Notes: generated by a model from the sequence alone, not told the origin. A DNA stretch of 60,579 nucleotides from Chitinophagales bacterium (GCA_020629205.1 JAHDDV010000001.1:1-60579); one strand, 5' to 3'. Shown: positions 9,540 through 38,059, counted from the first letter of the stretch. Program-made: numbers and translations.

Positions 9540-11465
9540 TTAGACTTTTTTCTTTAGGGTGACCACTTCACGGTAGCTTTTCTTGACTTGCTTAACCATT
9601 TGATTCCAGCTTTCAAATTGCTCAGGGCTGATCATCAGGGATTTGTTGGTGAAGTGAAAACTATAGTAGACAGAGGTACTGTCTTGACTGTACTTAATGT
9701 TCAGATTTAACAGTTCATTCGAGACATCGAGGTCTTTTGGCAGATACTCGACTTCGTAGCCATTTGGGATTTCTAGTTCAATATGTTTGATGATTTCAAA
9801 GGCGTAATCTTGCTTGACAGGCATAGTTCGATCATCGTCCAGCTTTTGATCACTGAATAGTTTTTCCAGATTCAAGTTAACAAATATTTTATCATCAGTT
9901 CGACTAATGTAATCGTCGATTTGGTAATCGAATTGCAATCTAGTAAGGCTGTCTCCAAAGCTTGGTTTACCGTAGTCGGTCAATTGAAACTTGTTGTTGC
10001 CTCTCTCGTGATAGTATTTGAAAAACTTCACAGGATCTTCTCCTTTCATCTTTGCAAACTGCCGACGATACTTGCCATGATGATATCCTCGGTATTCGGT
10101 CTGTGATTGACCCCTTAGCTGATCCTTTTCTATGACAAGTTTAGAGCTGTCGCGAAGGCCTGAGTTATGGAATGGTGCCGCCGGAACTTCCTTAAGTTTG
10201 AAGTCATTTTCAGACATATAGATGAGGGCTTGTTTGCCTTGTATGAACTCTGAAGGGTAGCCCAGTGGTAGATATTCATCCGTTGCATCCAGAAACCAAT
10301 AATCTCCTTCCGGGGTAACATAGGTAGCAATCATGTGATTGTCTATAAATGGAGCAGGAAATTCCTCGTAGCTCAAAGCAATATCGCGGGTGCCGATCCA
10401 GGTAAAGTGGCTTTCGACCCCAGCATGATCCATCATATTAACCAACATGCAAGACATATCTTTGCAGTCGCCAAACTTCTGTTGATAGATTGTATTAGGA
10501 TCTCTCGGGATGAAGCCTTCCATATCATTTTCGATTGCCAGATACTTGATATTGGATTTCACCCAGTCATAGATTCCATTCACAAGGCTCTTCTCGGTTG
10601 GGGAGTCTTGTTTGATAGAGTCCACAACAGCTTTGATCTCATTGTTGATCTCACCATCTTTAATGCTGTCGATCCAGGTGGAATACCAGGAGAATAGATC
10701 AGAAACATCACGGAGAACCGCTTTGCTTTCTCCATTAGTCTCATAGCTTTTTACCCGAACAGCTACAGTTGGCGATACGCTTCGAAAGGAAGGAGCACTA
10801 CTTTCTGGTTCGAATCCGGGGATGCTTTCCATGGTCCATTTATGATAGATCCTGCCTTTTTTGCTTGAAGTTTCATAGCGAATTTTGGATTCCGGATCGT
10901 TGTAGGTCTTCATTTCCAGTTCAATATCTTCATCGACATCGATCTCGAAGATGGCCATTTCCGTATCGTAGAAGGAATTGAAGTAATAGGGATTGACAAA
11001 TCGAGCATCTTGTAACTGTTCTTTATACTCTAGCGTGAGGTGAGCACCTGGTCGGGCATTTGGATAGGTGAAACTGGTGGATTTGCGCCCGTCATAGAAG
11101 TTTCGCTCGCTAAGAACCTCTGCAGTTTCGAAGTCTTTAACGCTGTAATTTTTGTACTTTCTGCCATCTGGTACACGCGTCATCGCTTTGATCTCCACTA
11201 ATTCAAAGAAATCACTGTACTGAATAGATCTATCGGCAAAGCTGGCTGCATTCTTATTGAGCAGCAGCAGTTCCTCTTTGACTGTGTTGGAGGCTTCCAA
11301 AGTCCCGTCAATGATGTCAATTCTCAGATGTCTTTCGTCTAGTATCTGAACCAATGGGGCTTTCGGGAACCGCTCTTGGTAGCGCTCCAGCTCACTTTGG
11401 CCATTGGAATGGGTATACATAGCCACAAAAACAAGGCAACAAACAAGTCGCTGGCAAAAATTCAT
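9540..11465 (-). CDS. DUF3857 + transglutaminase-like cysteine protease domain protein
   Basis: The transglutaminase core Cys is in FGDCKDMSCML, followed by NHMIATYV (His) and WFLDATD (Asp). I prefer the start at M24 (MNFCQRLVCCLVF, a signal peptide), which avoids overlap with the upstream gene. The ORF track extends to 11534. Confidence 0.75.
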   Translation of the reverse strand: MNFCQRLVCCLVFVAMYTHSNGQSELERYQERFPKAPLVQILDERHLRIDIIDGTLEASNTVKEELLLLNKNAASFADRSIQYSDFFELVEIKAMTRVPDGRKYKNYSVKDFETAEVLSERNFYDGRKSTSFTYPNARPGAHLTLEYKEQLQDARFVNPYYFNSFYDTEMAIFEIDVDEDIELEMKTYNDPESKIRYETSSKKGRIYHKWTMESIPGFEPESSAPSFRSVSPTVAVRVKSYETNGESKAVLRDVSDLFSWYSTWIDSIKDGEINNEIKAVVDSIKQDSPTEKSLVNGIYDWVKSNIKYLAIENDMEGFIPRDPNTIYQQKFGDCKDMSCMLVNMMDHAGVESHFTWIGTRDIALSYEEFPAPFIDNHMIATYVTPEGDYWFLDATDEYLPLGYPSEFIQGKQALIYMSENDFKLKEVPAAPFHNSGLRDSSKLVIEKDQLRGQSQTEYRGYHHGKYRRQFAKMKGEDPVKFFKYYHERGNNKFQLTDYGKPSFGDSLTRLQFDYQIDDYISRTDDKIFVNLNLEKLFSDQKLDDDRTMPVKQDYAFEIIKHIELEIPNGYEVEYLPKDLDVSNELLNLNIKYSQDSTSVYYSFHFTNKSLMISPEQFESWNQMVKQVKKSYREVVTLKKKV

Positions 11466-11469
11466 ATCT

Positions 11470-14400
11470 CTACTTGATTTCAAAAATGGTGTCTGCAAAG
11501 TACAGCAGCTCCGCTTTGATGCTACCGTCTTCATTATAAATCTTTGCCGGGCCGTTTAGTTCGCCATCAACATAGTTTAATTGTGCTTTCAGCTTTCCGT
11601 TCTTGTGATAGGTGCTCATTTCTCCCGAATAGGCGTCTAGATCGTACTGGCCTTTTGATTCAAGGGTCCCATCTTCGTAATAGGACTCAAAGGGCCCATG
11701 GGTCAAACCTTTTTCCATCATTGCTTTTCTTTGCAGCTGACCATTGGGGTGATACCTCAGGTATGGGCCATGGAATTGTCCCTTTTCGTAAAAAAAGTGT
11801 CTGGCCAGTTGCCCATTTGCATAATAGGATTTTACCTCTTGCGGATCAGCGGTGATTGGGATCTTGGCCACCGGCTTGCTTGATTCATCGAAATAGCTGT
11901 AGGCGATCGGCAGTCCTTGGTCGTAGTAGCGTAGGAATTGGACTTCGCCGGAACTGTGAAGCAAGCGCTCTTCTCCTTCTAGATAGCCGTATTCGTAGGT
12001 GGATTCTGTGATGGCTTGACCATTCTCGTCGTAGTTGCGATAGTCCCCATGCAGGTTTCCATGTAGATAGTTGGACTCGTTCTGCAATTTTCCCGAATCA
12101 TGGTAGCTTTTCCATTTTCCTTCTCGAACGCCATCAACATAATTGCCTTCTTTAGTCAAGGTCCCTTCCATGGAATAGGCCTTGTATTGACCATGTGGTT
12201 CATTGTGTTGGAATTCTACTTCACTTTTGATTTGACCGTTCGGATAGTAGTGGCTTAGCTTGCCAACAACTTGACCATGTTTGTACTCTTTCCGAAACAT
12301 GCTCTGTCCATTGGCATATTTTGGCTCAAGTACGCCCGCTCCTTTTAGAAGATCAACTTTTCCGATCGGGGCACCGTCAGGCCCGAATCTCGTACTACCG
12401 ATAAAGCTACCGTCACGCATTTTGTCCTTTGACCAAATCCGTCCATCGGCAGAGTAGCTGGATTGTTCTCCATGTTGGACCCCTTCTACATAATACTCGT
12501 CATATTCCAGAGTGCCGCTTATTGTGTAACGCTTATAAGGTCCATGCTGTAGATCGTCCAAATAATGTATTTCCGTGCTTGTTTGTCCATTTGCATAGTA
12601 GCTGTTGCTAGGACCTTGAGCCAGGCCTTCTTGATAATTGCGTTCAGATAGGAGTTCGCCCCAATTCGTGTAGGTTTTTGAAGGCCCATGGGCGGTCTTG
12701 TTGCTGTAAGTATCAAGTCCGGTTCTCACTCCGAAGGCGTTGTAGTAGGACCATTCACCTTCTCTTGATCCTTCTTCATAATTACCTGAAGTAGATAGGA
12801 CACCATTGTCATGAAAGTTCTCGAACCAGAATTTTTGTTTCTTTCGCTCTACTTCTTTTATGGTTTTGCCCTCTTCATCAAAAAGTCGGTATTTCACGAT
12901 GGTGCCTTTCTTGTATTCCAGTTGTAACTGCAGTTTTTCCGAGCGTGTATAAGTATTTAGCAGACCGGAATATTTCCCATTTTCGTCATATTCTGCTGTT
13001 TCTGACATTCGTCCTGCTTCATCGTAACTAGTCCATTTGCCACTCTTATTGCCTTTAACATACTTTCCTTGCTCTCTCAATTGGCCATGTTTGAAGTACT
13101 CAGAATAAGGACCATTGAGGAGGCCATTTTCATACTGACTTGTCGATTTTACTTGTCCATTGTTGTAGAAGCTTTCGACCTTACCTTGTAGCTCATCTTC
13201 TATGTAAGTCCCCCGTTCCTGAACCTCTCCATTGCTATGGTAGGTGATAAATGTCCCATTTTTCTTGTCTTCGCTAAGATCTACCTTGAAGCGTGGGCTG
13301 CCATCAGGAAAATAATACTGTATCGGGCCTTCTCCTTTGCCGTCTACGTAGTTGATTATCGCATATAAATTGCCATTGTAGTCATAGGTGCTTACCTTGC
13401 CATGGATGATGCCGTCTTTGTATTCTTCTTCAGTTTCAGTCACACCATTATCGAAATAGGTCTTGCGTGTTCCCTCTAGCTTTCCATCCTTGCTGTAGTG
13501 ATTGGTTTCACTTAGCTGGCCATTGGGATGAAGAAATTCCCATTTGCCCACTCGGATGCCATTTTCATACTTACCTTGACCAGCCAGGGCCCCAGTTTGG
13601 TGTATCAATTTGAAAGGGCCTTCCGGCTGTCCATTGATCAGTGTTCCGATGGCAACCAATTGACCATCTTCGCGAATGAAATCTACCATTTGATCGGAGC
13701 CATCCCAATTCATCATCCTCTTTTGGCTATAGTCACGCCACTCTACATTGAGATAAGGAATGAATTCCTGAATTTTCTTAATTTGTTTCTCGAAGTGCTG
13801 GACATGCTGCGGATTAGTACTGCTTAAGCACATTAGATTTGCCAATTGCTCGAACTGGTTTTCTGCCACCAGTTTTTGGTAGAATTTCAAGTAGGTGTTG
13901 GTCCAAAATCCGTCTTGACCGGAGTCGGCCTTATCAAAAAGCATGTATGACTGTCTGGCAAGAGCAATGTTGAGTTTGCTGGGTGTCTTGTACTTGGCAT
14001 CCAGGGCAACATAATTGTTGATCAAGAGATCGGTATGGGAAAAGTCTTCTTGCGGTGATACATCCAGGTCTGTCTTACTGCCTATATGCTTGGCAGAAAC
14101 GGCCTCGTTGATTCTTGTAAGGGCTTGCTGCGCAGTTGGATTTTGAAAATCAAGCGCCAGAAATGTCACAAATGCTAAAATAGCTTCACTTACTTGCTCT
14201 TCCTCTAGGGCTATTTCACCTAGCTGGTAGTGACTTGGACTGTGAAAAGGGTCAATGGCAACAGCACTTTGGAGGTCTTCCAGAGCTCCAGCGCGGTCTT
14301 GCAGCTGGATCTTTGTCACTGCCCGATGGTAGAACAGTGGCGCATGGTAGGGCATTTGCTTGATGGCTTCAGCATAAGTGGCTAATGCTTCATCAGCCTT

Positions 14401-15139: not shown

Positions 15140-18100
15140 ATGATCAAGTTTAGGAATCTTCTACTCCTATTGCTCTGCTGCCTCGTGACCTTTCCTGCAG
15201 AGCTTCAAGCAACCGATGAACGTCTTATTATTAGTTCAATTGCCAATGGCGCTTCAAGCGGACTAATTGGACAAATGACTGTTGAGAATATCTCGGAGGA
15301 TTTGGTGCCTTTTCAATTTGGCCCCTACGTAATTCCAGCTTCAGAAGCAAGTCAGGGATACGTCTTGCCAGGTGAAAGAGTCGTCATGATTCCCCCGGGA
15401 GAAGCTAAAACGCTTCCACTGTACGGATATTGCTACAGCTTACATAAGGCACCCGCCAATGCTAATGGCAGTTTTGCTTCAATTGAAGATTGGGTACAGC
15501 CGGAAGACATGGATGGAGCCTGGGTGGAAAACCTCCGGTTCGGTGGCGTAAAACCTGATTTTCTTGAAGATTACCAGCCAAGTCAAACAACTCTACTGGT
15601 GCCTGCCAGCAATTTTGAGATGCCCTATGCCATTGACGAAGAAAGTAATCTCGTAGATGCAGCTGCACTGTATGTGGAGGCTTTGCGAAGAATTCACCTG
15701 GCTTACTATCAGACCGATGGAATGGATTGGCTCGAAACGCCTTTTGATTACAAGAAGCAAAAGGAGCGAAATGCGGTCATTCAACAAACCTTCTGGATAT
15801 TCACTCAGGCCCTGGCTGGAGATGAGTACACATTTAGCGAGTTTGAAGAGCTCGTGTTCAGACAGCAAGTAGTCAAGGATTGGTCTAGTTCAAATAGCCG
15901 CTCGGTAAAAAATGAAGGCCTAAAGAGAGAAATCGTGAACTGGTGGGCGCTATTTAAAGACCTGGGAATAGTGGCGGGAATATTCAGAGCAGATATTTAT
16001 GACACCTTCCCGGCAAGTGTGTACCTCGATGCTCCTCAGGACTCCATTTCCCGCATACGTAAGCCTGAAAGTGTGCCAGACCTCGATTGGATACTCACTT
16101 ACCCATCCGACCACAATATTGGGCTGCGGGACAGTCTTGTAAACTCCGATCCTAATCTCTGGACAGAATGGAATGAAGAACTAAAAAAGGGACCGAAGAA
16201 AAGTGCTGATGGAAACATTCTTATCACGGTACCGATTTTCGATTGGGAGCAACATGACCCATACGCCAGACCTCAAAAGGCAGGTATAGACGACATGTGG
16301 CGGTTCATCGAATTGACCGGCTCTCTATTGAAAGAGTCCCCTAAAAAACCAGTTTGGCCATATGTAGTTGCCGCAGCGGCAGTAGTTGGCTCAGTGACTG
16401 CCATAGCCTTACTCAGCAATCAAGCCGATGATTGCGGCGATTGCGATGACGGCGACCCTTGTACCAATGATGTTTGTGTCTATCCGGATTGCGTAAACAC
16501 CCTTATCAACTGCGACGATGGCGATCCCTGCACCGCCGATTATTGTGAAAATGGAATTTGCATCAATGCGCCCATTCAGGATTGCTGCCAAAGCGAAGAA
16601 GATTGTGCTGATGACAACCCTTGCACCATCAATACCTGTGTCAATGGAACGTGTCAATTGGAGTTCATAACCTGCGATGATGGCGATCCTTGTACAACCG
16701 ATTTTTGCCAGAATGGTACCTGTGTATACGAACCCAATGCTTGTGACGATGGAGACCCATGTACCATTGATGACTGCGATGAAGAAGGGAATTGCACGCA
16801 TGAACCAAAAATCTGCGATGACGAAAACCCCTGTACAATTGATGCATGCGATGAGAATGGAAACTGCTTTTTCACCTCAATACCATGCGATGACGGTGAC
16901 CCATGTACTGATGACAGCTGTGAAAATGGAGATTGCGTATTTGTAGCTATTGACTGTGATGATGGTGATCCATGTACACAGGACTCTTGCGATGGTGCTG
17001 GAAACTGTATCAATGAACCGATCGTCTGTGACGATGGAGATCCCTGTACACAGGACAGTTGCGACGAGGGAGACTGTGTGTTTGAAGCTATTGTTTGTGA
17101 CGACGGTGATCCCTGTACGACTGACTATTGCGATGAAAACGGAGATTGTGTCTTCGAAGGTACTACATGCGATGATGGCGATCCTTGTACAATAGACAGT
17201 TGTGATGAGTTTGGGGACTGTGTCTTTGAACCAGTAGTTTGTAACGATGGAAATGCTTGTACCGAAGACCTTTGTGATGAAAACGGTAGCTGTATTTCAA
17301 TTCCAATCATTTGCGATGACAATGATCCGTGTACGGAAGACTCTTGCGATCCGGTTCTTGGCTGCGTTTATGAACCAATTGAAGCCTGCTGTACCGGCCC
17401 GGAGAGTTGTGATGATGGCGACCCATGTACTATTGATCAGTGTAATACTTTTACCGGAGAATGTTTCTCAGTACCGGTGATCTGTAATGATGGAAATGCC
17501 TGCACGCTGGACTATTGTGATGGCAATGGAAGCTGCGTTTCAGAACCAATCGTTTGCGACGATGGTGATCCCTGTACTGAAGATCTCTGCGATCCCGTAG
17601 ACGGCTGCCAATTCATACCAATTGAAAACTGCTGCGATGGCATCGGGAATTGCGATGATGGTGATCCTTGCACTATTGACCAATGTAACCCTGAGACAGG
17701 TGAATGTGTCTCCATCCCACTCAACTGCAATGACGGCAATGCTTGTACTATTGATACTTGCGATGATGAAGGAAACTGTAGCCATGAAGAAATCACTTGT
17801 AACGATGGTAATCCCTGTACAGAGGATGTTTGTGATCCTGAGCTGGGTTGTCAGTTCATTCCAATCGAAGGTTGTTGTACTTCACCTCTGGCTTGTGATG
17901 ACGGCGACCCCTGTACCGTGGACCAATGTACCGGCAACAACGTCTGTGTACATTTTCCACTAAACTGTGATGACGGTGATCCCTGTACTGAGGATTTCTG
18001 TGAGGATGGAGGCTGCCAAAATGTACCCATCAGTTGTGACGATGGGAACCCGTGTACAGAAGATACCTGTGATCCGGAGCTCGGTTGTATCTATACACCC

Positions 18101-21100
18101 ATCGCGGCTTGCTGTCAAAGTCCTGAAGACTGCGACGATAATAATCCCTGTACAGAAGATACTTGTGATCCCGAAACAGGGATTTGCAGCAATATTGAAA
18201 TCGACTGTGATGATGGAGATCCTTGTACCGTTGATGTTTGTCAAGGCAATGGCATCTGTGATCATATCTTCATTACAGATTGTTGCGGTGAAAATGGAAA
18301 CTGCGATGATGGTGATCCATGTACTGTAGATAGCTGTGATCCCTTCTCAAGCGAGTGTATTAATGAACCGATTGTCTGCGATGATGGTGATGCCTGTACC
18401 TATGATAGCTGTGATGAGGAGGGCAATTGTGTTAGCATCCTCTTTATTTGTCAGGATGGTGATCCTTGTACCCAGGATACTTGCGACCCCGAGCTCGGAT
18501 GTATATTCATTCCGATTGAAAACTGCTGTTCAGGTATCGGGACTTGTGATGATGGTGACCCATGTACTATTGATGTTTGTGATGAGGATACGGGCACTTG
18601 TATCAGCAGCCCGATTAATTGCGACGATGGCAACCCTTGTACCCTGGATCAATGCGATGGAGAAGGAAACTGTATCTACTTTGAAGTCGGCTGCTCGGAT
18701 GGGGATATCTGCACCGAAGATATCTGTGACCCAATTGAAGGCTGCATCTTCGTTCCGATCGAAGGCTGTTGTGCCAATGCTTCCGATTGTCCAATCTCCG
18801 ACCCATGTACTCAGGCAATTTGCAATCTTGAAAATGGCGAATGCTTATATGTTCCCATTGACTGTGATGACGGGGATCCTTGTACCAATGATTTCTGTGA
18901 GGACGGGTTCTGCCAATTCGTTCCAGTCGTTTGCGATGATGGAAATGATTGTACCGAGGATATCTGTACAGAAAATGGTTGCGAGTATATCCCAATTGAA
19001 GCTTGCTGTGCAGATGAGGCTGATTGCGATGATGGCAATGCATGTACCATTGATACCTGTGATCCAGAAACGGGACTTTGTAGCAACGAGCCGATTTCTT
19101 GCGATGACGGTGATCCCTGTACAGAAGACTTCTGCTCTGGCGATGGTATCTGTGTCAATCAACCGATTGTCTGCGATGATGACAACCCTTGCACTGAAGA
19201 TGCATGCGTAGATGGCGAATGTGTGTTTACAGATATTGATTGTGATGATGGAAACCCATGTACCGAAGATCTCTGTGACGCCTTTTTGGGTTGCCAGAAT
19301 GTACCTATTGGAGGTTGCTGTCAGGGAAGTGAGGATTGTGATGATGGCGATCCCTGTACAATTGATACTTGTGATGCGGAAACCAACACCTGTATGAGCA
19401 TCCCAGTTAGTTGCTCGGACGGAGACGCCTGTACCACAGACTTCTGTGATGGTGAAGGCAATTGTGTCCATGAGGCAATCACCTGCGATGACGGTGATCC
19501 TTGTACCGAAGATAGCTGTGATCCCGTAACAGGTTGCGTCTTTACACCGATTGAGGGATGTTGTCAGGTAGCTGCCGATTGCGATGATGGCGATCCATGT
19601 ACTGTTGCCGAATGTGATCTGGAAGCAGGTTCTTGCGTCTTCGTTCCAATCGATTGTGATGACAACAACGCTTGCACCACCGACTTCTGTAATGAGGATG
19701 GAGCCTGCGTGCATGAGCCGATTTCTTGCGATGATGGTGACCCTTGTACAGAAGATTCATGCGATCCTGTGGAGGGCTGTATATATACACCAGTCGAAAA
19801 CTGTTGCTCCGATGCTGTCGACTGCGACGATGGTGATCCTTGTACAATCGATACCTGCGAAGACGGAAACTGTGTCAACAGCCCAAAAGACTGTGATGAC
19901 GGCGATGCTTGTACCATCGATAGCTGTGACGCCGAAGGAAATTGCATTTACGAAGAATTCGTCTGTGACGATGGAAATGACTGTACCGAAGACTTCTGTG
20001 ATCCGGTGGAGGGTTGCCGATATGTACCAATCGAAAGCTGTTGCTCGGGCCCGGAGGATTGTGATGACGGTGATCCTTGCACAATCGATGACTGTGATCC
20101 CGAGACAGGAGAATGTATGAACACTCCCGTAGCCTGCGATGATAACGATGCATGTACAACGGATTCCTGCAATGAACTGGGAGAATGCGTGTTTGAAGCC
20201 ATCAGCTGTGATGACGGCGACCCTTGTACTGAAGATACCTGTGATCCTGAATTGGGTTGTGTCTATACCGCCATTGAAAATTGCTGTGAATCGGGTAATG
20301 ACTGCGATGACGGAAATCCTTGTACCTTGGACACCTGTTCAGAAAATGGCGAATGCATATATGCACCGATCTCATGTGATGATGGCAATGCCTGCACCAT
20401 CGACACCTGTGATGGAGAAACCGGTGCCTGCATCAATACTCCTATAGATTGCGATGATGGTGATCCTTGTACCACCGATAGCTGTGATGGAAGTGGAAAT
20501 TGCATCAACGAAGCAATCTCTTGTGATGATGGCAATGCTTGTACCATTGATAGCTGCGACGCAGATGGCAACTGTGTGTACGAGTTTACTGCCTGCGACG
20601 ACAATGACCCATGTACCGAAGACCTCTGCGATTCTGATACAGGAGAGTGTACATCAGTGCCGCTGGATTGCAGCGATGGGAATCCATGCACCATCGATAG
20701 CTGCGATGGTGAAGGCAATTGCATCAATACGCCTATCGATTGTGCGGATGATAATCCTTGTACTGAGGACATCTGCAACGGAGCAACTGGTGAATGTGTC
20801 CACGTGATTATCAATTGCGATGATGGCAATGCCTGTACCTGGGACTACTGCGATGGTGAAGGCAATTGCATCCATCAGGAGTTTGAGTGTGATGATGGTG
20901 ATCCATGTACCATCGATTCTTGCGATCCGGCTCTGGGATGCGTCTCTACTCCTATAGAAGGATGTTGTACTGAAGAAGCTGATTGCGATGATGGTGATCC
21001 TTGTACCATCGATTCCTGTGAAGCAGGTACTTGTACCAACACACCGATCAGCTGTGATGATAACGATCCATGTACCGAAGATAGCTGCAATGCCGAGACA

Positions 21101-24100
21101 GGAGACTGTGAGTACACTCCGATAGAGGGATGCTGCGAAGGACCAGATTCCTGCGACGATGGTGATCCATGCACAGTAGATACCTGCGTAGACGGCACTT
21201 GCATCAACACACCAAATGATTGTGACGATGGCGATCCTTGTACTGCAGATTCCTGCGATACGGAAACCGGCGACTGCATCAATGAGCTGATTGCCGATTG
21301 CTGTACCGAACCTGCTGCCTGCGACGATGGCGATCCATGTACAGTGGATACCTGTGAAGACGGCACTTGTGTCAATACCCCAAATGATTGCGACGACGGA
21401 GATCCTTGCACCACAGATTTCTGTGATCCTGAAACAGGTGATTGCATTAATGAGCTTTCATCCAATTGCTGTGATCTGAATGAAGACTGCGACGATGGCG
21501 ACCCATGTACCGTAGACACTTGCGAAGACGGCACTTGTGTCAATACCCCAAATGATTGCGATGATGGCGATCCCTGCACCATCGATACTTGCGAAGATGG
21601 CAACTGTGTGAACAGCCCTCAGGTTTGTGATGACGAAAACCCCTGTACCATTGATACCTGCGAAGATGGCAATTGTCTCTTCACCCCAATTGACTGCGAT
21701 GACGGTGATCCTTGCACAACGGACTTCTGCGACTCCGAAACAGGGGAATGTGTATATGTTACCATCGAGCTTTGCTGTACGGAGCCGGGCGACTGTGATG
21801 ACGGCGATCCTTGTACAGTCGATACCTGCGAAGACGGCCTTTGTGTCTTCACACCAACGAGCTGCGATGATGGCGATCCATGTACGACTGACAGCTGCGA
21901 TCCAATTACTGGCGATTGCCTGTTTACACCAAATGACAACTGCTGCTCAGAACCGGGCGACTGCGATGATGGCGATCCCTGTACCATTGATACCTGTGAG
22001 GATGGGGTTTGTGTCTTCACTCCAGCGACTTGCGATGATGGCGATCCATGTACCACAGATAGCTGCGATCCCGACACAGGCGATTGCGTGTTCACTCCAA
22101 ATGAAAACTGCTGTTCGGAACCAGGCGATTGTGATGACGGCGATCCTTGTACGGTCGATACCTGTGAGGATGGAGTCTGTGTCTTCACTCCAGCCGATTG
22201 CGATGATGGTGATCCTTGTACGCTTGACTCCTGTGATCCGAAGACGGGCGACTGTGTAAATGTACCGCTCGATTGTGATGACGGTGATCCTTGCACAATC
22301 GATAGCTGCGATGGCGGCGAATGCATCAATGAACCTGTGAACTGTGATGATGGCGATCCTTGTACCGTTGACAGCTGCGACGCCAGCACTGGCGAATGTA
22401 TCAATGAAGCGGTAGTGTGCGATGATAATAATCCATGCACTGATGATGCTTGCAATGCTGTAACAGGGGAATGCGAATTCACCGACAATGGTACTTGCTG
22501 CAATGGCATCGAAGATTGTGATGACGGTGATCCTTGTACCATCGATACCTGCGAAGATGGTGCCTGTGTAAACACCCCGAATCCATGCGATGATGGTGAC
22601 CCTTGTACGATAGATACCTGCGAAGAAGGAGGCGTCTGTGTCAATACCCCACAGCTCTGCGACGATGGTAACCCATGTACAAACGAATTCTGTAACGAAG
22701 ATGGTGATTGTGTCTATCAAACTATCGTTTGCAATGACGACAATCCCTGCACCAACGATTTCTGTGATGGAGAAGGAAATTGTGTGCATGAACCCATAGT
22801 CTGCGATGATGGTGATGCCTGTACCGTGGATACCTGCGATGCCGATGGCAACTGTGTCTTCACACCGATCACCTGCGATGATGGCTCCGATTGTACGGAG
22901 GATAGCTGCGATCCAGTGCTAGGCTGTGTATTCACTCCCGTAGACGAGATCTGCTGCGATTCCTCCATCGATTGTAATGACGGAGATCCTTGCACAGTCG
23001 ATACCTGTGAGGATGGCGCTTGCTATAACAGACTCTTTGTCTGCGATGACGAAGATCCCTGTACCACTCAATATTGTGAAGACGGTATTTGCTACTTCGA
23101 ACCAATCCTCTGCGATGATGGAAACGCCTGTACCTTTGATACTTGTGTGGATGGCAGCTGTGTCTTCACACCGATTATCTGCGATGATGGCGATCCATGT
23201 ACCGAGGAGTTCTGCAATGATGGTATCTGTGTAGGTAGTTTTGTCAATTGCGATGATGGCGATCCTTGCACCATCGATTATTGCGACAATGGTGCCTGCT
23301 ACCACGAACCTATTGTTTGTGATGATGGCGATCCTTGTACCTTTGATTTCTGTCTGGGCGGTGTATGCATCAGTACTACTATCGCCTGCGAAGACGGTGA
23401 TGGATGCACAATAGACTATTGCGAAAATGGCGACTGCTTCTCTGAGCATCTCTATGAATGGGAGTTCAATATCAACAATCCAAGTGCGATTGGCGAAGGC
23501 GATGGCTCGATCACCATGACCATCACCAACACGCCGATGGATTCGCTCTATTGGTTCTGGTTGATTCAAGGTTCGGATACACTCGAAATTGGCAATGATC
23601 TCACGACCTACACTTTTGATGAATTGTTTGCCGGAGATTACTTCGTCGAGGCATTTATTGCTGATAGCTGTACCACGGGTCCTCAGCTCATCACGCTGGA
23701 TGACGGCCCCGGACATCAGCCGCTCCTGCAAGCAGACCAATGGCTGCTATGGACCCTGACTAATCCGGCAACGCTGCAATGGCAGCCAAGTGCTGAAGCG
23801 ATCAGGCCAGAGCGGGAGCTAGTTGGCAATGAAGCCTTTGATGGAAATTGGGTCTTAGTGCCATCCAACAATGCGAATGCTACCTTTGCTCAACCGATTT
23901 CGCCAAATGCACGCGTGCAGCTTAGTACGATGCTCTTTGATGGCCAGGTGTTCTACTTCTCCGAAAATCCACAGACCAACAATTGGACGGCCTTAGAGGA
24001 CCCGGTTTTGGTGACACAGTTGAAAGGACTATTGCTGGAAGGTAGCTATCAATACTTCCCGACATCGAAGCAGCAAGTTTATCTGGGTGCTGGTCTAAAT

Positions 24101-24331
24101 TACCAGTACATCACTGCGGGTCCGACAGTCCTTTACACGGATTTAGGTGCCACCACCTTCCCGGAGATTGAGCAGGATCATTACCTGATACCATATTTGG
24201 AAGCTGGATTTGATAAAGACATAAGTAAACGAATTAACCTACATGGACGAGCGGCCTTGTACCATGGACTCCAACAATCCTGGGCTCCATATTTCAATCT
24301 CGGTCTGCGCGTTCCTTTGGAAAGAGAATAG
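15140..24331 (+). CDS. Giant (3063 aa) Cys/Asp-rich tandem-repeat surface protein
   Basis: A single uninterrupted ORF with an ATG start and signal peptide MIKFRNLLLLLLCCLVTFPAELQA. It comprises a ~400-aa unique N-domain, a hydrophobic segment, about 90 CDDGDPCTxDxC modules, one SprB-repeat-like module and a ~270-aa Cys-free C-terminus. Confidence 0.85.
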   Translation: MIKFRNLLLLLLCCLVTFPAELQATDERLIISSIANGASSGLIGQMTVENISEDLVPFQFGPYVIPASEASQGYVLPGERVVMIPPGEAKTLPLYGYCYSLHKAPANANGSFASIEDWVQPEDMDGAWVENLRFGGVKPDFLEDYQPSQTTLLVPASNFEMPYAIDEESNLVDAAALYVEALRRIHLAYYQTDGMDWLETPFDYKKQKERNAVIQQTFWIFTQALAGDEYTFSEFEELVFRQQVVKDWSSSNSRSVKNEGLKREIVNWWALFKDLGIVAGIFRADIYDTFPASVYLDAPQDSISRIRKPESVPDLDWILTYPSDHNIGLRDSLVNSDPNLWTEWNEELKKGPKKSADGNILITVPIFDWEQHDPYARPQKAGIDDMWRFIELTGSLLKESPKKPVWPYVVAAAAVVGSVTAIALLSNQADDCGDCDDGDPCTNDVCVYPDCVNTLINCDDGDPCTADYCENGICINAPIQDCCQSEEDCADDNPCTINTCVNGTCQLEFITCDDGDPCTTDFCQNGTCVYEPNACDDGDPCTIDDCDEEGNCTHEPKICDDENPCTIDACDENGNCFFTSIPCDDGDPCTDDSCENGDCVFVAIDCDDGDPCTQDSCDGAGNCINEPIVCDDGDPCTQDSCDEGDCVFEAIVCDDGDPCTTDYCDENGDCVFEGTTCDDGDPCTIDSCDEFGDCVFEPVVCNDGNACTEDLCDENGSCISIPIICDDNDPCTEDSCDPVLGCVYEPIEACCTGPESCDDGDPCTIDQCNTFTGECFSVPVICNDGNACTLDYCDGNGSCVSEPIVCDDGDPCTEDLCDPVDGCQFIPIENCCDGIGNCDDGDPCTIDQCNPETGECVSIPLNCNDGNACTIDTCDDEGNCSHEEITCNDGNPCTEDVCDPELGCQFIPIEGCCTSPLACDDGDPCTVDQCTGNNVCVHFPLNCDDGDPCTEDFCEDGGCQNVPISCDDGNPCTEDTCDPELGCIYTPIAACCQSPEDCDDNNPCTEDTCDPETGICSNIEIDCDDGDPCTVDVCQGNGICDHIFITDCCGENGNCDDGDPCTVDSCDPFSSECINEPIVCDDGDACTYDSCDEEGNCVSILFICQDGDPCTQDTCDPELGCIFIPIENCCSGIGTCDDGDPCTIDVCDEDTGTCISSPINCDDGNPCTLDQCDGEGNCIYFEVGCSDGDICTEDICDPIEGCIFVPIEGCCANASDCPISDPCTQAICNLENGECLYVPIDCDDGDPCTNDFCEDGFCQFVPVVCDDGNDCTEDICTENGCEYIPIEACCADEADCDDGNACTIDTCDPETGLCSNEPISCDDGDPCTEDFCSGDGICVNQPIVCDDDNPCTEDACVDGECVFTDIDCDDGNPCTEDLCDAFLGCQNVPIGGCCQGSEDCDDGDPCTIDTCDAETNTCMSIPVSCSDGDACTTDFCDGEGNCVHEAITCDDGDPCTEDSCDPVTGCVFTPIEGCCQVAADCDDGDPCTVAECDLEAGSCVFVPIDCDDNNACTTDFCNEDGACVHEPISCDDGDPCTEDSCDPVEGCIYTPVENCCSDAVDCDDGDPCTIDTCEDGNCVNSPKDCDDGDACTIDSCDAEGNCIYEEFVCDDGNDCTEDFCDPVEGCRYVPIESCCSGPEDCDDGDPCTIDDCDPETGECMNTPVACDDNDACTTDSCNELGECVFEAISCDDGDPCTEDTCDPELGCVYTAIENCCESGNDCDDGNPCTLDTCSENGECIYAPISCDDGNACTIDTCDGETGACINTPIDCDDGDPCTTDSCDGSGNCINEAISCDDGNACTIDSCDADGNCVYEFTACDDNDPCTEDLCDSDTGECTSVPLDCSDGNPCTIDSCDGEGNCINTPIDCADDNPCTEDICNGATGECVHVIINCDDGNACTWDYCDGEGNCIHQEFECDDGDPCTIDSCDPALGCVSTPIEGCCTEEADCDDGDPCTIDSCEAGTCTNTPISCDDNDPCTEDSCNAETGDCEYTPIEGCCEGPDSCDDGDPCTVDTCVDGTCINTPNDCDDGDPCTADSCDTETGDCINELIADCCTEPAACDDGDPCTVDTCEDGTCVNTPNDCDDGDPCTTDFCDPETGDCINELSSNCCDLNEDCDDGDPCTVDTCEDGTCVNTPNDCDDGDPCTIDTCEDGNCVNSPQVCDDENPCTIDTCEDGNCLFTPIDCDDGDPCTTDFCDSETGECVYVTIELCCTEPGDCDDGDPCTVDTCEDGLCVFTPTSCDDGDPCTTDSCDPITGDCLFTPNDNCCSEPGDCDDGDPCTIDTCEDGVCVFTPATCDDGDPCTTDSCDPDTGDCVFTPNENCCSEPGDCDDGDPCTVDTCEDGVCVFTPADCDDGDPCTLDSCDPKTGDCVNVPLDCDDGDPCTIDSCDGGECINEPVNCDDGDPCTVDSCDASTGECINEAVVCDDNNPCTDDACNAVTGECEFTDNGTCCNGIEDCDDGDPCTIDTCEDGACVNTPNPCDDGDPCTIDTCEEGGVCVNTPQLCDDGNPCTNEFCNEDGDCVYQTIVCNDDNPCTNDFCDGEGNCVHEPIVCDDGDACTVDTCDADGNCVFTPITCDDGSDCTEDSCDPVLGCVFTPVDEICCDSSIDCNDGDPCTVDTCEDGACYNRLFVCDDEDPCTTQYCEDGICYFEPILCDDGNACTFDTCVDGSCVFTPIICDDGDPCTEEFCNDGICVGSFVNCDDGDPCTIDYCDNGACYHEPIVCDDGDPCTFDFCLGGVCISTTIACEDGDGCTIDYCENGDCFSEHLYEWEFNINNPSAIGEGDGSITMTITNTPMDSLYWFWLIQGSDTLEIGNDLTTYTFDELFAGDYFVEAFIADSCTTGPQLITLDDGPGHQPLLQADQWLLWTLTNPATLQWQPSAEAIRPERELVGNEAFDGNWVLVPSNNANATFAQPISPNARVQLSTMLFDGQVFYFSENPQTNNWTALEDPVLVTQLKGLLLEGSYQYFPTSKQQVYLGAGLNYQYITAGPTVLYTDLGATTFPEIEQDHYLIPYLEAGFDKDISKRINLHGRAALYHGLQQSWAPYFNLGLRVPLERE
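16430..23440 (+). repeat. In-frame coding tandem-repeat array (about 90 units of 66-90 nt)
   Basis: I hand-counted 90 [PADIG]-C-T motifs in the consensus C-D-D-G-D-P-C-T-x-D-x-C-x(3-6)-C-x(4-7). A longer variant ending in ..PIExCC....C recurs periodically. Confidence 0.9.
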
Positions 24332-24350
24332 TAATTTTGAGTATATGCGT

Positions 24351-24553
24351 TTTTGGAGCCGGGCAGATCGGGCCGTAGCAGCGGCCTACCCGTGCTCCGC
24401 TAATACTCAGCACCCAGCTAGCTGCTCCAGCTCAGCCAGTAGCATCTCCTCCTATCGTCGGAGCTACTACTGGCTGGCTTGCGCCACGCTATCCGGGCAC
24501 TTCGTTCCGCTGCGCCCGGGGCTATTGGGCCAGGTCTTTCGAGCGCGCTAAAT
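24351..24553 (+). repeat. Interspersed intergenic repeat, copy C (long form with tail)
   Basis: Starts 19 nt after the giant gene's stop. It differs from copy F by 10 substitutions and no indels over 172 nt (hand alignment). The tail is GGGCCAGGTCTTTCGAGCGCGCTAAAT. Confidence 0.85.
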
Positions 24554-24633
24554 AGACGATCTAAGGAATGTAGCACTGTGTCAATATAGTTGCAATACTC
24601 GCTATTGATGCCACGGATTTTGTATGAGAAAAG

Positions 24634-24836
24634 CTAACGCGCTCGAAAGACTGCGCAAATTAGCCCGGATAGAAATGGAAATGAAGGCCTCAGTTCAGGA
24701 GACTGAGCGCCAGCTAGTGCTGGCTGTGAGGAACGAGCAGACAGCAATAGCTGTGCAGCGAAGCCCTGAATGAGGCCTTCATTGGAATGGATAGCCGGAC
24801 GGTCGCTGCTACGGCCGAAAATGCTGGGCTCCAAAA
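24634..24836 (-). repeat. Divergent subfamily copy D, inverted relative to copy C
   Basis: The reverse complement starts TTTTGGAGCCCAGC..GGCCGTAGCAGCGACC and ends GTCTTTCGAGCGCGTTAG, so its termini are shared with copy C. The interior is different and contains an 18-bp long-range stem (24680-24698 / 24766-24783). Confidence 0.7.
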
Positions 24837-24961
24837 GATTAATTAGCAAAAAAAGACATAGTGCAGAAGGACATCAATGAGGGACAAGAATACCGAATCG
24901 GGATCGGCCGCATTTCCGGTAATGATGGTATTGGATTACTGGGGAGCGCAAATGAATACAG

Positions 24962-25570
24962 ATGATCACCTACGGAATTATTGCTCTGACCTGCCTCATT
25001 TCCTACCTTGGTTTCGACAATCAATCGCTGCGTAACAAGCTGCTTTTTATTCCTTATCGAGTAAAGCACAATCGGGAGTTTCACCGCTTTGTCAGTTCAG
25101 GGCTGGTTCACGCAGATATGCTGCATCTAGGTTTCAATCTTTTTGTGCTTTTTCAATTCGGGCCGATTCTAGAGCGGTATTATGCGTCCATTCTAGGGGC
25201 AGGATATGGAATAGCCTACCTGCTGTTGTACTTTGGAGGTATGGCAGCGGCAGATTATGCGACCTATTTGAAATTCAAAGATAATTCATCCTATCGAAGT
25301 CTGGGAGCATCAGGGGCGGTTTCGGCTGTCCTCTTGAGTTTTATCGTTATTGATCCCTGGTCGAAACTGCAGCCGATCTTCTTTCCGATGGAAATTTATT
25401 CCTTCTACATCGGCATTGCATACCTGCTTTATTCCTATTTTGCTGGACGAAAACTCAAAGACAATATCAACCACGATGCTCATTTGTTTGGAGCCATTTG
25501 GGGTATATTATTCACCTTTGCCATGGAACCCAGACTGATAAGAAGATTGGGAGATTCACTGGGATTTTAA
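24962..25570 (+). CDS. Rhomboid family intramembrane serine protease
   Basis: 202 aa and multi-TM, with HLGFNL, the catalytic GASGAV, and the downstream His in AHLFGAIWG. Confidence 0.85.
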   Translation: MITYGIIALTCLISYLGFDNQSLRNKLLFIPYRVKHNREFHRFVSSGLVHADMLHLGFNLFVLFQFGPILERYYASILGAGYGIAYLLLYFGGMAAADYATYLKFKDNSSYRSLGASGAVSAVLLSFIVIDPWSKLQPIFFPMEIYSFYIGIAYLLYSYFAGRKLKDNINHDAHLFGAIWGILFTFAMEPRLIRRLGDSLGF

Positions 25571-35133: not shown

Positions 35134-36975
35134 ATGTACAAATCGACCAGAGACTGCGTTAAGGATCTAGATAAGCATAAGCATCTCGTAGTCATCAAAG
35201 AGGAAGTGGACCCATATCTGCAAATGGCAGCCATCCATAGAAGAGTCTACGATCATGAAGGCCCGGCAATCCTATTCGAAAACGTGAAAGGCTGCGAGTT
35301 TCCTGCAGTGTCCAATCTCTTTGGTACCATGGACCGCAGCCGATTCATTTTTAGAAAGACCATCGAATCTGTCAAAAAGCTGGTCTCCTTAAAGGCAGAC
35401 CCGAGCGCCCTGCTCAAAAACCCCTTTGGTTACCTCGCAATGCCATTTGTAGGCCTCAATGCTTTACCCAAACCAGCCATCTTTTCTAAGCCCGTTCTGG
35501 CCAGAGAGATAGCGATCAGCGATTTGCCGCAAATTCAATCATGGCCTGATGACGGAGGTGCTTTCGTAACCCTGCCACAAGTCTATACCGAAGACCCAGA
35601 CAATCTCGGTATCATGAAATCGAATGTGGGAATGTACCGGATCCAGCTCGGAGGCAATGACTACATCCCAAACAAAGAGATTGGATTGCACTATCAAATT
35701 CATCGCGGCATTGGCGTGCATCAAGCTAAGGCCAATGCCAAAGGGCAAGCGATGAAGGTGAGCATATTTGTTGGGGGCCCACCTTCTCACAGTCTAAGCG
35801 CCGTGATGCCCCTACCAGAAGGTCTGCCTGAAGTGGCCTTCGCAGGTGCCATGGCTGGGAGGGGATTCCGCCACACAAGAGTCGATGGCTTTACCTTGTC
35901 TACCGATGCGGATTTTGTCATTACCGGTACGGTACATGAAAAGGAAACCAAGCCCGAAGGCCCCTTCGGAGATCACCTCGGCTACTATAGCCTGATTCAC
36001 GATTTCCCGCTTATGAAGGTGCATAAAGTTTACGCACGTAAAGACGCGATATGGCCCTTCACGGTAGTTGGCAGGCCTCCGCAAGAAGATACGAGTTTCG
36101 GAGCACTGATACATGAAATCACTGGTGCCGTTATTCCAACTGAACTTCCCGGATTGCATGCAGTGAATGCAGTTGATGAAGCAGGGGTTCATCCACTTTT
36201 GCTCGCTATCGGAAGCGAACGATACACACCTTACGAAGAGCTGAAAAGGCCACAGGAATTACTTACAATTGCCAACCATATTTTGGGTTTTGGCCAGATG
36301 TCCCTGGCTAAGTACCTCTTGATTGTTGCTAAGGAGGATGATCCAAAACTGGACATTCACCACATCGATGACTTCTTTACACACATGCTGCAACGTATTG
36401 ATTGGAGACGAGACCTGCACTTTCAAACAGAGACCAGTATCGACACGCTGGACTACTCTAGTAAAGGCCTAAACGAAGGTTCAAAAGTGGTGATGGCTGC
36501 CGCAGGGCCAACGATCAGATCATTGGCAAAACAGGTGCCTGGAGATTTTTCCTTGCCAGCTCCTTTCAATCAGGCACAACTGGTCCATCCGGGAATTCTG
36601 GCTATTCAGGGCCAGAACTTTCAGTCCTACGAAAAAGCGGAAAAGGAACTTCAGACTCTGACGGATTTTTTGGAAGATCAACACCTCGAATCACTCAAAT
36701 CCATTCCCTTGATCGTGCTCGTAGACGATTCCGCTTTTCTCGCAGAAAGATTTGCCAACTTTCTCTGGGTAACCTTCACCCGTAGCAATCCTTCGCATGA
36801 CATCTATGGTGTTGCAGCAGGGACACGATACAAGCATTGGGGCTGTAAGTCTTCCCTCATAATTGATGCCCGCATTAAGCCATTTCACGCTCCACCCTTG
36901 ATCGAAGATCCAAGAGTAGAGGCATCAGTGGATGCACTTGGAGCAAAGGGTGGACCCTTACACGGCATCATTTGA
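35134..36975 (+). CDS. UbiD family decarboxylase (long form, menaquinone-biosynthesis-decarboxylase-like)
   Basis: 613 aa. The N-terminus is typical of UbiD: L..H..L..I.EEVDP.LQMAAI.RRV....GPAILFENVKG. Confidence 0.85.
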   Translation: MYKSTRDCVKDLDKHKHLVVIKEEVDPYLQMAAIHRRVYDHEGPAILFENVKGCEFPAVSNLFGTMDRSRFIFRKTIESVKKLVSLKADPSALLKNPFGYLAMPFVGLNALPKPAIFSKPVLAREIAISDLPQIQSWPDDGGAFVTLPQVYTEDPDNLGIMKSNVGMYRIQLGGNDYIPNKEIGLHYQIHRGIGVHQAKANAKGQAMKVSIFVGGPPSHSLSAVMPLPEGLPEVAFAGAMAGRGFRHTRVDGFTLSTDADFVITGTVHEKETKPEGPFGDHLGYYSLIHDFPLMKVHKVYARKDAIWPFTVVGRPPQEDTSFGALIHEITGAVIPTELPGLHAVNAVDEAGVHPLLLAIGSERYTPYEELKRPQELLTIANHILGFGQMSLAKYLLIVAKEDDPKLDIHHIDDFFTHMLQRIDWRRDLHFQTETSIDTLDYSSKGLNEGSKVVMAAAGPTIRSLAKQVPGDFSLPAPFNQAQLVHPGILAIQGQNFQSYEKAEKELQTLTDFLEDQHLESLKSIPLIVLVDDSAFLAERFANFLWVTFTRSNPSHDIYGVAAGTRYKHWGCKSSLIIDARIKPFHAPPLIEDPRVEASVDALGAKGGPLHGII

Positions 36976-38059
36976 TCCTGCTAAAACATCGATCCCAGCG
37001 AATGCCCTGGAAGAAGGGTTTATGAGGTTTTCTGGACATCCAGATAAAAGTAGCCTTGCCGATTAAATGATCCTCCGGTACAAAACCCCAGAAGCGACTG
37101 TCCTTACTTAAATGACGATTGTCTCCCACCATAAAATAGTAATCGAGTTCAAAGACATATTGCTCCCTGCGCTCCCCATCCAAATAAATACCGGCTTCGT
37201 CATAGGCCAACTCATGACCTTCATATAGCTCAATAGCAGTCCGATACAAAGGCAATGTCATAGTATTCAAAGCAATCGTGTCACCCTTCTTTGGAATGTA
37301 CAAAGGGCCAAAGTTATCCAGATTCCAAGGGTATTGTTCAGGAGCATTTGGGAAGGTCGGTTCATATTCCATCGTCATACCTTTCACCCGCTGGATAGTG
37401 TCGACCTTGATCACATTTTCAAAGTCGGCGAGCTTTTTCAAATTGCCAGGAGTAAGGGCATATTGATAATGTTTGATGTCGTGAAACATGCCTCCCTCCG
37501 AAATATCCAGCTTCTGGAGCGAAAGCTTATTGATGGGATCGCCGTTTGTCTTTATCAGATAGTTAAACTGAATGGTCTCCGGATTGACGGAAATCTCGCT
37601 ATTGACAAGCACCTGCCGATTTACAATCTCCAGTGTGTCTCCAGGCAAGGCAACACAGCGTTTCACAAATACGGTCCTTCGATCCGCTGGTACAGTATGA
37701 TCCATTGGTGTGTTGAAAACCACTACATCATTTCGCTGCACTCCGGTGAAACCTGGAAGCCGGAAGTAAGGCCATGTGATCCACTCGGTATAGGATTTGG
37801 TTTGTGTCCCAGGCAATTTGTCATCAGCAAATGGAAAGGCCAAAGGAGTGATGGGCATCCGCGGACCATAATGCAGTTTGGACACAAGCAAGTAGTCGCC
37901 AACCATCAAGGTCTTTTGCATCGAAGTAGTAGGGATAACATACAGCCCGATCAGAAACAACTGCAGCACCCAAGCCATTAGTATGGCTATCACAGTGGCA
38001 TAAAGAAGATCCTTGAGAAAGGATCGCTTCTTTCCAGACTTACCCTGCTTGCTCATCAT
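36968..38059 (-). CDS. lepB: Signal peptidase I (paralog 1)
   Basis: PTTSMQKTLMVGD (Ser), VKRCVALPGD (Lys) and GDNRHLSKDSRFWGFVP. The 3' end overlaps the convergent ubiD-family gene by 8 nt. Confidence 0.9.
   Translation of the reverse strand: MMSKQGKSGKKRSFLKDLLYATVIAILMAWVLQLFLIGLYVIPTTSMQKTLMVGDYLLVSKLHYGPRMPITPLAFPFADDKLPGTQTKSYTEWITWPYFRLPGFTGVQRNDVVVFNTPMDHTVPADRRTVFVKRCVALPGDTLEIVNRQVLVNSEISVNPETIQFNYLIKTNGDPINKLSLQKLDISEGGMFHDIKHYQYALTPGNLKKLADFENVIKVDTIQRVKGMTMEYEPTFPNAPEQYPWNLDNFGPLYIPKKGDTIALNTMTLPLYRTAIELYEGHELAYDEAGIYLDGERREQYVFELDYYFMVGDNRHLSKDSRFWGFVPEDHLIGKATFIWMSRKPHKPFFQGIRWDRCFSRIK

Follow-up and report, generated by a model that had tools for sequence, protein, structure and literature searches.

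Fibrillar adhesins are long proteins that combine an adhesive region, a rod-like stalk of repeats and a surface anchor (PMC9210967). In the thioester-headed examples, a thioester domain (TED) sits at the N-terminal tip of the repeat stalk, and such domains have been reported 'exclusively in Gram-positive bacteria' (PMC4450167). A rigid elongated arm is also known from the Entamoeba Gal/GalNAc lectin, where the Cys-rich region of HgL is built from beta pseudo-domains of 20-35 residues that contain four Cys. The outer two Cys of a unit pair with each other and the inner two pair with neighbouring units, so each unit has one disulfide of its own and two that reach across; the arm is described as 'rigidified by interdomain disulphide bonds' (PMC12948311). 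The Dicty_CTDC repeat (Pfam PF00526) is known from matrix proteins of social amoebae. Here we describe a gene from a Chitinophagales bacterium (GCA_020629205.1 JAHDDV010000001.1:1-60579; this whole stretch of 60,579 nucleotides (nt) is called the window below) in which 90 Dicty_CTDC modules follow one another in a single protein of 3,063 amino acids (aa). The product is probably a giant fibrillar-adhesin-like surface protein with a Dicty_CTDC stalk, and its head, tail and hydrophobic segment come from undescribed families.

An array of 90 Dicty_CTDC modules

The open reading frame (ORF) runs through 3,063 codons without an internal stop or a frameshift across 9.2 kb (Table 1), and no database record of the exact protein sequence was found in an exact-sequence look-up. 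Matching the pattern C-x5-C-T-x3-C located exactly 90 modules, the first Cys lying at nt 16442 (aa 435) and the final module beginning at nt 23387, so that the array spans 16442-23464, or 2,341 aa. An initial annotation of the window, read from the bare sequence, had counted about 90 tandem modules in one protein at 16430-23440; the count was correct and the interval essentially right, with both ends now placed slightly further downstream. Their length had been given as 22-30 aa, which is roughly what was measured (23-33 aa): 67 of the 90 are 23-26 aa long, and the other 23 are 31-33 aa long and carry an extra CC pair. The annotated C/C/T/C pattern held throughout, with C1, C7, T8 and C12 present in 90/90 modules and the fourth Cys also invariant, but the gap between the third and fourth Cys is 4-6 residues and not the proposed 3-6. 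The remaining consensus positions are D3 and D/N5 (89/90 each), D10 (84/90), D2 (76/90), G4 (75/90) and P6 (71/90).

Pfam placed PF00526 on 75 separate stretches of the protein at E=0 and 1508.6 bits, well past the curated gathering threshold of 27 bits. With such a score the similarity is far beyond chance, and the kinship with the Dictyostelium repeat that the initial annotation had proposed passed its hidden Markov model (HMM) test. A Pfam scan of the whole protein at E<=0.01 returned no family other than Dicty_CTDC. As had been predicted (more than 360 Cys and extreme acidity), the 2,341 aa of the array hold 406 Cys, 458 Asp and 172 Glu (630 acidic residues) next to 3 Lys and 2 Arg, for a net charge of about -625.

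To our knowledge the Dicty_CTDC repeat has no solved structure of its own, and a search of Protein Data Bank (PDB) sequences with the repeats gave nothing meaningful and matched no solved structure. Six modules (aa 725-886) were modelled with AlphaFold2 (AF2) from an alignment of window fragments and homologs of this 162-aa fragment, a check on three to six modules having been proposed beforehand. The model is a chain of beta-hairpins with two short beta-strands per module and a short helix at the CC insert, and its mean predicted local distance difference test score (pLDDT) is 93.5. The best PDB match found by Foldseek was Entamoeba HgL (chain 9gjc_H, E=6.4e-5, probability 1.0), and modules of the tumour necrosis factor receptor type were not significant in the same search. 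Each 23-33-aa module is thus predicted to be a small beta-hairpin unit, and by analogy with the Entamoeba lectin arm its four or six Cys would form disulfides within the module and staple it to its neighbours. The outcome would be a covalently interlocked, extremely acidic filament; other disulfide modules of about 24-40 aa suggest an estimated stalk length of roughly 100-200 nm, which makes the several hundred nm first put forward probably too high. The Cys tally is even when C432, just ahead of module 1, and C2844, behind the array, are counted with the 406 in the array, which is compatible with an interlocked rod and with all-intramolecular pairing.

The composition of the array also raises the possibility of a polyanionic cation binder, in which Ca2+ or thiophilic metals (Cu, Zn, Cd) would be held for storage, detoxification or mineral nucleation. 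The 630 acidic residues against 5 basic ones, the 406 Cys and the conservation of D2, D3, D5 and D10 all agree with this, and PF11617, a putative metal-binding motif, is also present in some CTDC-containing matches. Charge alone makes it plausible that the conserved Asp residues bind Ca2+, and the likeness of D-D-G-D to calcium-binding loops is a resemblance at the level of the motif; the calcium binding suggested by the initial annotation is not supported by any family match. We nevertheless regard metal binding as a very unlikely purpose of the array. No metal- or Ca-binding family was matched in the protein, HMMs for the Ca-binding repeat families thrombospondin type 3, cbEGF and LDLa giving no match in the whole protein at E<=0.01; the fold is confidently predicted, with Cys placed as in disulfide-rich extracellular modules; the closest solved analogue uses disulfides; and the head and tail that frame the array favour a spacer role. 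Ca2+ may well serve as a stiffener rather than as the purpose of the array.

A separate observation concerns D-[ST]-[AILMTV], the Bacteroidota O-glycosylation sequon. It occurs 0 times in the array, against 13.9 ± 3.6 times in composition-preserving shuffles, and its absence may simply reflect the fixed T and S positions of the repeat.

When one genome per species was scanned with the N-terminal domain, only one locus came up. It belongs to 'Chitinophagales bacterium isolate MAG-174' (L001) and encodes a 3,094-aa ortholog with 91 modules. Synteny extends to both sides, through an S8 peptidase gene, two DUF3857/transglutaminase genes, a gene for MORN and tetratricopeptide (TPR) repeats, the giant gene, a rhomboid gene and a threonine aldolase gene. 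The strings of module length classes are the same in the two proteins over the first 57 modules, bar two length changes, and the same again at the final modules. Most whole-module differences lie in or adjoin the zone 20984..22198, and insertions or deletions of more than 2 residues are all found within aa 2000-2400, in or around the 168-bp super-repeat zone. Cys is aligned to Cys at 402 of 411 positions. The array is 66-75% identical to that of L001, compared with 47-76% for the neighbouring proteins (threonine aldolase 76%, several others 47-73%). The proportion of nonsynonymous differences (pN) in the array is 0.16-0.22 and the synonymous sites (pS) are saturated, for which reason we give pN against pS and not dN/dS. 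This comparison indicates that individual modules are positionally orthologous and under purifying selection, and that the length of the array is conserved.

Long tandem repeats are prone to misassembly, and the copies of the 168-bp super-repeat (Tandem Repeats Finder (TRF), period 168) are 82-83% identical to one another, both of which would speak for a misassembled repeat or a decaying pseudogene. Such an artefact is exceedingly improbable and already effectively refuted. The reading frame is intact over its full length and the repeat copies have diverged; because adjacent DNA copies in the array are only 69-83% identical, collapse or expansion by misassembly is unlikely. Since an independent second genome carries 91 modules in nearly the same order, under strong purifying selection, the array is neither a pseudogene nor a product of assembly, and the reservation on this point that accompanied the initial annotation falls away.

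A head and tail shared with proteins that carry other stalks

Relatives of the giant protein in Saprospiraceae and Chitinophagales metagenome-assembled genomes (MAGs) (P0121-P0123, P0145, P0230, P0241, P0251 and P0262), including one on a Saprospiraceae MAG contig, have a head of the same family and the same hydrophobic segment. In place of CTDC modules, these proteins of 1,300-2,100 aa have stalks built of Big_9, Cadherin_5, HYR_4C or Ig_7 domains. The tail family is common to P0122, P0230, P0241, P0251 and P0262 but did not take in the tails of P0121, P0123 and P0145. An Ig-like element precedes the tail in P0230, P0241, P0251 and P0262. The corresponding Ig-like segment of the window protein has homologues in P0262 and in the tail-bearing relatives and is 79% identical to that of L001; its Pfam Ig_7 match (E=0.05) was sub-threshold and was treated as noise. 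The CTDC motif was absent from the 150 best head relatives, and among head relatives only the window protein and L001 combine this head with a CTDC stalk. Because the relatives share head and tail but differ in the stalk, the middle of these proteins is an exchangeable spacer that is filled by CTDC modules in the window's lineage.

We read the array as a stalk because a head, a stalk of repeats and an anchor make up the architecture of fibrillar adhesins; the initial annotation had also proposed a stalk, and its proposal gains from the position of the array between a head and tail that flank Ig-like stalks in relatives and from its fit to a rod of beta-hairpins. Length, rod-like repeats and an N-terminal non-stalk domain all fit the definition of a fibrillar adhesin. 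Examined part by part, the stalk consists of 90 modules modelled as a hairpin chain, the head is globular with no known adhesive match, and the tail has a beta-signal-like end. With moderate confidence we conclude that the array serves as a rod-like stalk in a giant surface protein that is exported through Sec and resembles fibrillar adhesins, made by a Chitinophagales-type (Saprospiraceae-like) member of the Bacteroidota. The stalk would hold the N-terminal head, which may bind a ligand outside the cell, away from the C-terminal Ig-like domain and beta-rich tail, and the tail would attach the protein to the cell envelope, probably to the outer membrane.

Two further observations were made among the relatives. 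A sigma-70-like stretch in P0230 (E=0.016) was treated as noise. On a Saprospiraceae MAG contig (L003), a second head-family gene (1033-3120, minus strand, 695 aa) lies divergently beside the head-stalk-tail gene (3604-8829, plus strand).

No Pfam or NCBIfam model covers the head, which had no Pfam match even at E<=10. A word-indexed search with the head came back empty, yet exhaustive searching with HMMER brought up 363 cluster representatives at E<=1e-3, 233 of which reach E<=1e-10, so the head is no orphan; the word-indexed search seems to skip proteins much longer than the query (all 120 listed matches to a 162-aa query were <=284 aa). Among 150 relatives (P0121-P0270), head-family domains stand by themselves behind a signal peptide, follow one another in tandem or precede long stalks. 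AF2 modelling with 32 sequences gave a beta-sandwich followed by a helical bundle (pLDDT 84.5, predicted template modelling score 0.85). Foldseek found no PDB match to this model better than E=0.08, and a search of PDB sequences with the head profile found nothing. In 123 full-length domains Q72, Q215 and W219 are invariant (123/123), C98 and N50 are present in 122/123 and W118 and Y230 in 121/123, and no His, Asp, Ser or Lys is conserved.

The conserved residues lie in three motifs: GYC(T/A)D at the end of a beta-strand, (V)IQ(Q/H)TFWI(Y)T in a predicted helix and YQ(G/P)YIV in a beta context. These echo the TED motifs [YFL]C-Φ-ζ, TQxxΦWΦxζ and ΦQζΦΦ (PMC4450167), but their order differs, with the beta-context Gln ahead of the Cys and not behind it. 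No link from the head to TEDs or to Pfam TQXA_dom was found in Pfam, in PDB sequences or among Foldseek's 50 best matches listed. Given the different order of the motifs and the absence of any connection in sequence or fold searches, we rejected membership and did not file the head as a TED. A bolder proposal is that the head is an unrecognised covalent-adhesion module, a Gram-negative analogue or circular permutant of TEDs in which Cys98 would form an internal thioester with Gln72 or Gln215, displayed on a disulfide-interlocked CTDC rod of about 100-200 nm. The Ala/Gly/Pro-rich hydrophobic segment would be part of a new export or anchoring mechanism common to a family of such head, segment, stalk and tail proteins, known so far from Saprospiraceae and Chitinophagales MAGs and from unassigned metagenome contigs. 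We offer this tentatively and think it on balance unlikely; if the head were a covalent-binding module, the interest of the system would be higher.

Between the head and the array, the stretch aa 300-434 is 63% identical to L001, and its linker part gave a weak match at the same position in P0121 and P0123. The hydrophobic segment at aa 404-427 reaches a 19-residue Kyte-Doolittle mean of up to 2.1, is conserved in L001 and recurs in every relative that bears the tail. Trp, Pro and Gly are abundant in it, its consensus runs around P-W-x-W...VPxxGG, and it is flanked by basic residues on the N-terminal side and acidic ones on the C-terminal side. Segments of this kind were located at aa 771-795 in P0230, 715-739 in P0241, 759-783 in P0251, 721-745 in P0262 and 493-517 in P0156. 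It may represent a leftover internal signal, a site of processing or an element for membrane insertion.

The segment could instead mark an envelope-tethered protein, either as a true membrane helix that anchors it or as a signal for processing or sorting; the topology would then depart from that of a fibre simply anchored in the outer membrane, and head and stalk might be cleaved apart or two membranes or cells bridged. The strong hydrophobicity of the segment, its basic flanks and its retention in every tail-bearing relative suit this idea, as do its likeness to a signal or sorting peptide (basic n-region, Ala/Gly-rich h-region, small polar residues) and the presence, both in the window and in L001, of a rhomboid protease gene downstream of the giant gene. 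We consider a tethered protein of this type quite unlikely, since a stop-transfer would place the 406 Cys, the Ig-like domains of the relatives and the beta-signal-like tail in the cytoplasm, no Met is conserved for an internal start, and outside the window the rhomboid gene has this position in the closely syntenic L001 but not in three more distant relatives (L002-L004). The distribution of the rhomboid gene also led us to reject it as the processor of the Ala/Gly-rich segment.

P0122, P0230, P0241, P0251 and P0262 end in sequences that align with the tail and share its motifs FxGxGLxWQ and YLSxG, and the last strand of the tail resembles a beta-signal; pairwise support for the window protein and L001 is weak. 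The A4 HMM, built from these same tail sequences, finds the tail again at the C-terminal end of genes at L002 and L003, and the only family hint was Pfam DUF481 at E=0.04, treated as noise. A tail-only word-indexed search, which again seems to skip much longer proteins, gave no match. NCBIfam found no sorting domain of the type IX secretion system (T9SS; TIGR04183/PF18962, TIGR04131/PF13585) in the C-terminal 314 aa, and Pfam found none in the whole protein or in the C-terminal 288 aa; the same libraries do detect T9SS sorting domains in neighbouring genes and in the metagenome locus L052 described below. A classical (type Va) autotransporter was also rejected: Pfam and NCBIfam gave no beta-domain match, the tail is about 200 aa long, and a Cys-rich passenger would be atypical. 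The beta-domain of type Va autotransporters is roughly 250-300 aa long and 12-stranded.

Several points weigh against a fibrillar-adhesin-like surface protein. The head has no adhesive or lectin fold recognisable by Pfam, PDB profile or Foldseek searches, and for the tail, Pfam, NCBIfam and a PDB profile search gave neither a known anchor family nor a solved structure. The beta-amphipathic signal of the tail is only about 1.5 standard deviations above shuffles, which is not decisive. By standard Sec rules a stop-transfer at aa 404-427 would leave stalk and tail cytoplasmic, although a true stop-transfer that keeps the stalk in the cytoplasm is implausible. No experimental study was found for the head, tail or bacterial CTDC families, whose members, including all named members of the head family, are annotated as 'hypothetical'.

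Giant arrays in other genomes and the genes beside the locus

A search with the 162-aa fragment found 293 proteins, and PF00526 was present in 120/120 of those listed. The matches among those listed came from Polyangiaceae, Kofleriaceae, other Myxococcales MAGs, Lacihabitans (Bacteroidota), Dictyostelium, a marine eukaryote transcriptome and many metagenomes. A single metagenome scan with the same fragment gave at least 600 stretches, of which 426 were confirmed and the best 79 loci were kept. Eight of these best 79 contain arrays of 79 to at least 149 modules, each in a single ORF of 3,350 to at least 4,900 aa. The largest, L040, has at least 149 modules in 4,918 aa, with the ORF open at the end of the locus, followed by L050 (at least 126) and L073 (at least 100), both of which are open at the 5' end; the complete ORFs contain 87 (L045), 85 (L062), 84 (L043), 81 (L031) and 79 (L052) modules. 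The initial annotation had thought such an array unusual at this scale in a bacterium, which these loci, including a T9SS cargo from Bacteroidota and lipoprotein-type proteins, contradict. Giant bacterial CTDC proteins were not found in the literature searched.

The giant arrays differ in how they end. In L031, L040, L043, L045 and L062 a lipoprotein-type signal (e.g. ..LAVACSG) and an acidic low-complexity linker are followed by CTDC modules to the last residue. Four of these (L031, L043, L045 and L062) are complete ORFs of 3,352-3,458 aa; with L040 the group spans 81 to at least 149 modules and a GC content of 0.50-0.61. These five loci may belong to Myxococcota, a guess from GC content and the taxa of the fragment matches. 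L052 joins its 79 modules to a P-domain and a T9SS Por_Secre_tail, whereas L045 has CTDC modules only. The Por_Secre_tail of L052 indicates that CTDC arrays are exported in Bacteroidota. The other giant CTDC proteins thus have termini different from those of the window protein, and neither its head nor its tail was found in any of the 79 metagenomic loci. Giant CTDC arrays are recurrent in environmental bacteria, under several anchoring schemes.

That many metagenomic giants are nearly pure CTDC arrays with neither head nor tail lends some weight to another view, in which the window protein is a structural component of an extracellular matrix or sheath, like Dictyostelium EcmA and EcmB, held together by intermolecular disulfides or by association with polysaccharide and not a spacer that presents a head. 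Many Saprospiraceae are filamentous or sheathed, which also counts for this view. So does the Pfam family that the array has in common with the Dictyostelium matrix proteins (PMC4931340). We think a matrix or sheath role unlikely for the window protein. Its head and tail form a conserved frame in which relatives use adhesin-type Ig, cadherin or HYR stalks, the even Cys count is compatible with all-intramolecular pairing, and the positional orthology of the modules suggests a defined single-molecule structure. A stalk that presents the head remains our preferred account.

The genes around the locus were examined as well (Table 1). The upstream MORN/TPR gene is transcribed divergently from its giant neighbour, and L001 has its genes in the same order; the MORN/TPR gene was rejected as a conserved partner, as the divergent 1,113-aa gene at L002 is unrelated. 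No convincing ORF or Rfam match was found in the 630-bp gap downstream of the giant gene, and an Rfam scan of the window returned only two tRNAs. A second giant ORF in the window is directly followed by a PorP/SprF-family gene, and a type B T9SS cargo followed by a PorP/SprF gene is the usual partner arrangement.

Table 1. Positions in the window of the giant gene, its parts and neighbouring features
Feature	Position (nt)	Strand	Basis or remark
Whole gene, 3063-aa head/stalk/tail protein	15140..24331	+	Single unbroken ORF; syntenic 3094-aa ortholog at L001:10001-19285
Sec-type signal peptide, aa 1-24, MIKFRNLLLLLLCCLVTFPAELQA	15140..15211	+	Sequence reading and hydropathy profile; similar starts in family members, including head-only proteins
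Head domain, aa ~25-300, beta-sandwich and helical bundle, uncharacterised family	15212..16039	+	HMMER, AF2
Cys98 codon, sole Cys of mature head, near-invariant in family	15431..15433	+	
Linker, aa 301-403, less conserved, W..ELTGS motif at end	16040..16348	+	Identity to L001, weak match to relatives
Transmembrane-like hydrophobic segment, aa 404-427, PVWPYVVAAAAVVGSVTAIALL, conserved	16349..16420	+	Kyte-Doolittle
Stalk of 90 Dicty_CTDC modules, aa 435-2775	16442..23464	+	Module pattern, Pfam, AF2, Foldseek
Three-module super-repeat zone (32+25+24 aa), modules 13-48	17312..20302	+	Module-length string; order identical in L001
Two-module super-repeat zone (23+33 aa = 168 bp), modules 58-72	20984..22198	+	TRF
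Ig-like (SprB/Ig_7-like) domain, aa 2776-2860	23465..23719	+	Sub-threshold Pfam Ig_7, homologous segments in relatives
C-terminal tail, aa 2861-3063, candidate outer-membrane anchor	23720..24328	+	Alignment with C-termini of relatives
Tandem paralogs, DUF3857 and transglutaminase-like core	7572-9539, 9540-11534	-	
TPR and MORN_2 repeat protein, 1090 aa	11470-14742	-	Divergent from giant gene
Gap of 630 bp between giant gene and rhomboid gene	24332-24961		
Rhomboid protease gene	24962-25570		
Adjacent tandem signal peptidase I genes (Peptidase_S26)	36968-38059, 38060-39187	-	
Second giant ORF, 2801 aa: 'putative T9SS sortase PorU2' N-terminal domain, T9SS type B C-terminal sorting domain	44064-52469	+	NCBIfam (PorU2 E=4e-172)
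PorP/SprF-family gene	52536-53492	+	Pfam E=6e-75

Comparison with known repeat proteins and adhesins

A repeat known from social-amoeba matrix proteins thus builds some of the largest proteins in environmental bacteria, where arrays of 80-150 units occur under different anchoring schemes, and in the lineage of the window it takes the place of Ig-like domains in the stalk of a probable surface protein with head and tail. For this widespread and unstudied repeat we hypothesise a role as a covalently stapled, protease- and force-resistant spacer. The head (at least 363 representatives, with a Cys/Gln/Trp signature) and the tail are two uncharacterised families which, with the hydrophobic segment, merit Pfam entry. 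The presence of the repeat in Amoebozoa and in bacteria also bears on the horizontal transfer of matrix modules.

The nearest relatives of the array by family are the Dictyostelium proteins EcmA, EcmB and PsiA (PF00526), which have the same period of about 24 aa, four Cys per unit and tandem arrays in secreted proteins. The window protein differs from them in its bacterial host, in having 90 units in one chain and in its bacterial head, hydrophobic segment, Ig-like domain and tail; it has no PA14 or other amoebozoan partner domain, and a matrix function would be hypothetical for it. By structure, the best solved match is Entamoeba HgL, whose four-Cys beta units are joined through disulfides to form a rigid, elongated arm. 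It is a eukaryotic type I membrane protein with far fewer units, its sequence identity to the bacterial modules is about 18%, and the TM-score is low because both are flexible rods. By architecture, the protein is most like fibrillar adhesins, including the Gram-positive TIE proteins with their thioester head, repeat stalk and LPXTG anchor: it is very long, with an N-terminal head, a tandem-domain rod and a putative C-terminal attachment region (PMC9210967, PMC4450167). It departs from them in drawing its head, stalk module and anchor from families unused there, in its Gram-negative host and in its internal hydrophobic segment, and its adhesive role is a presumed one.

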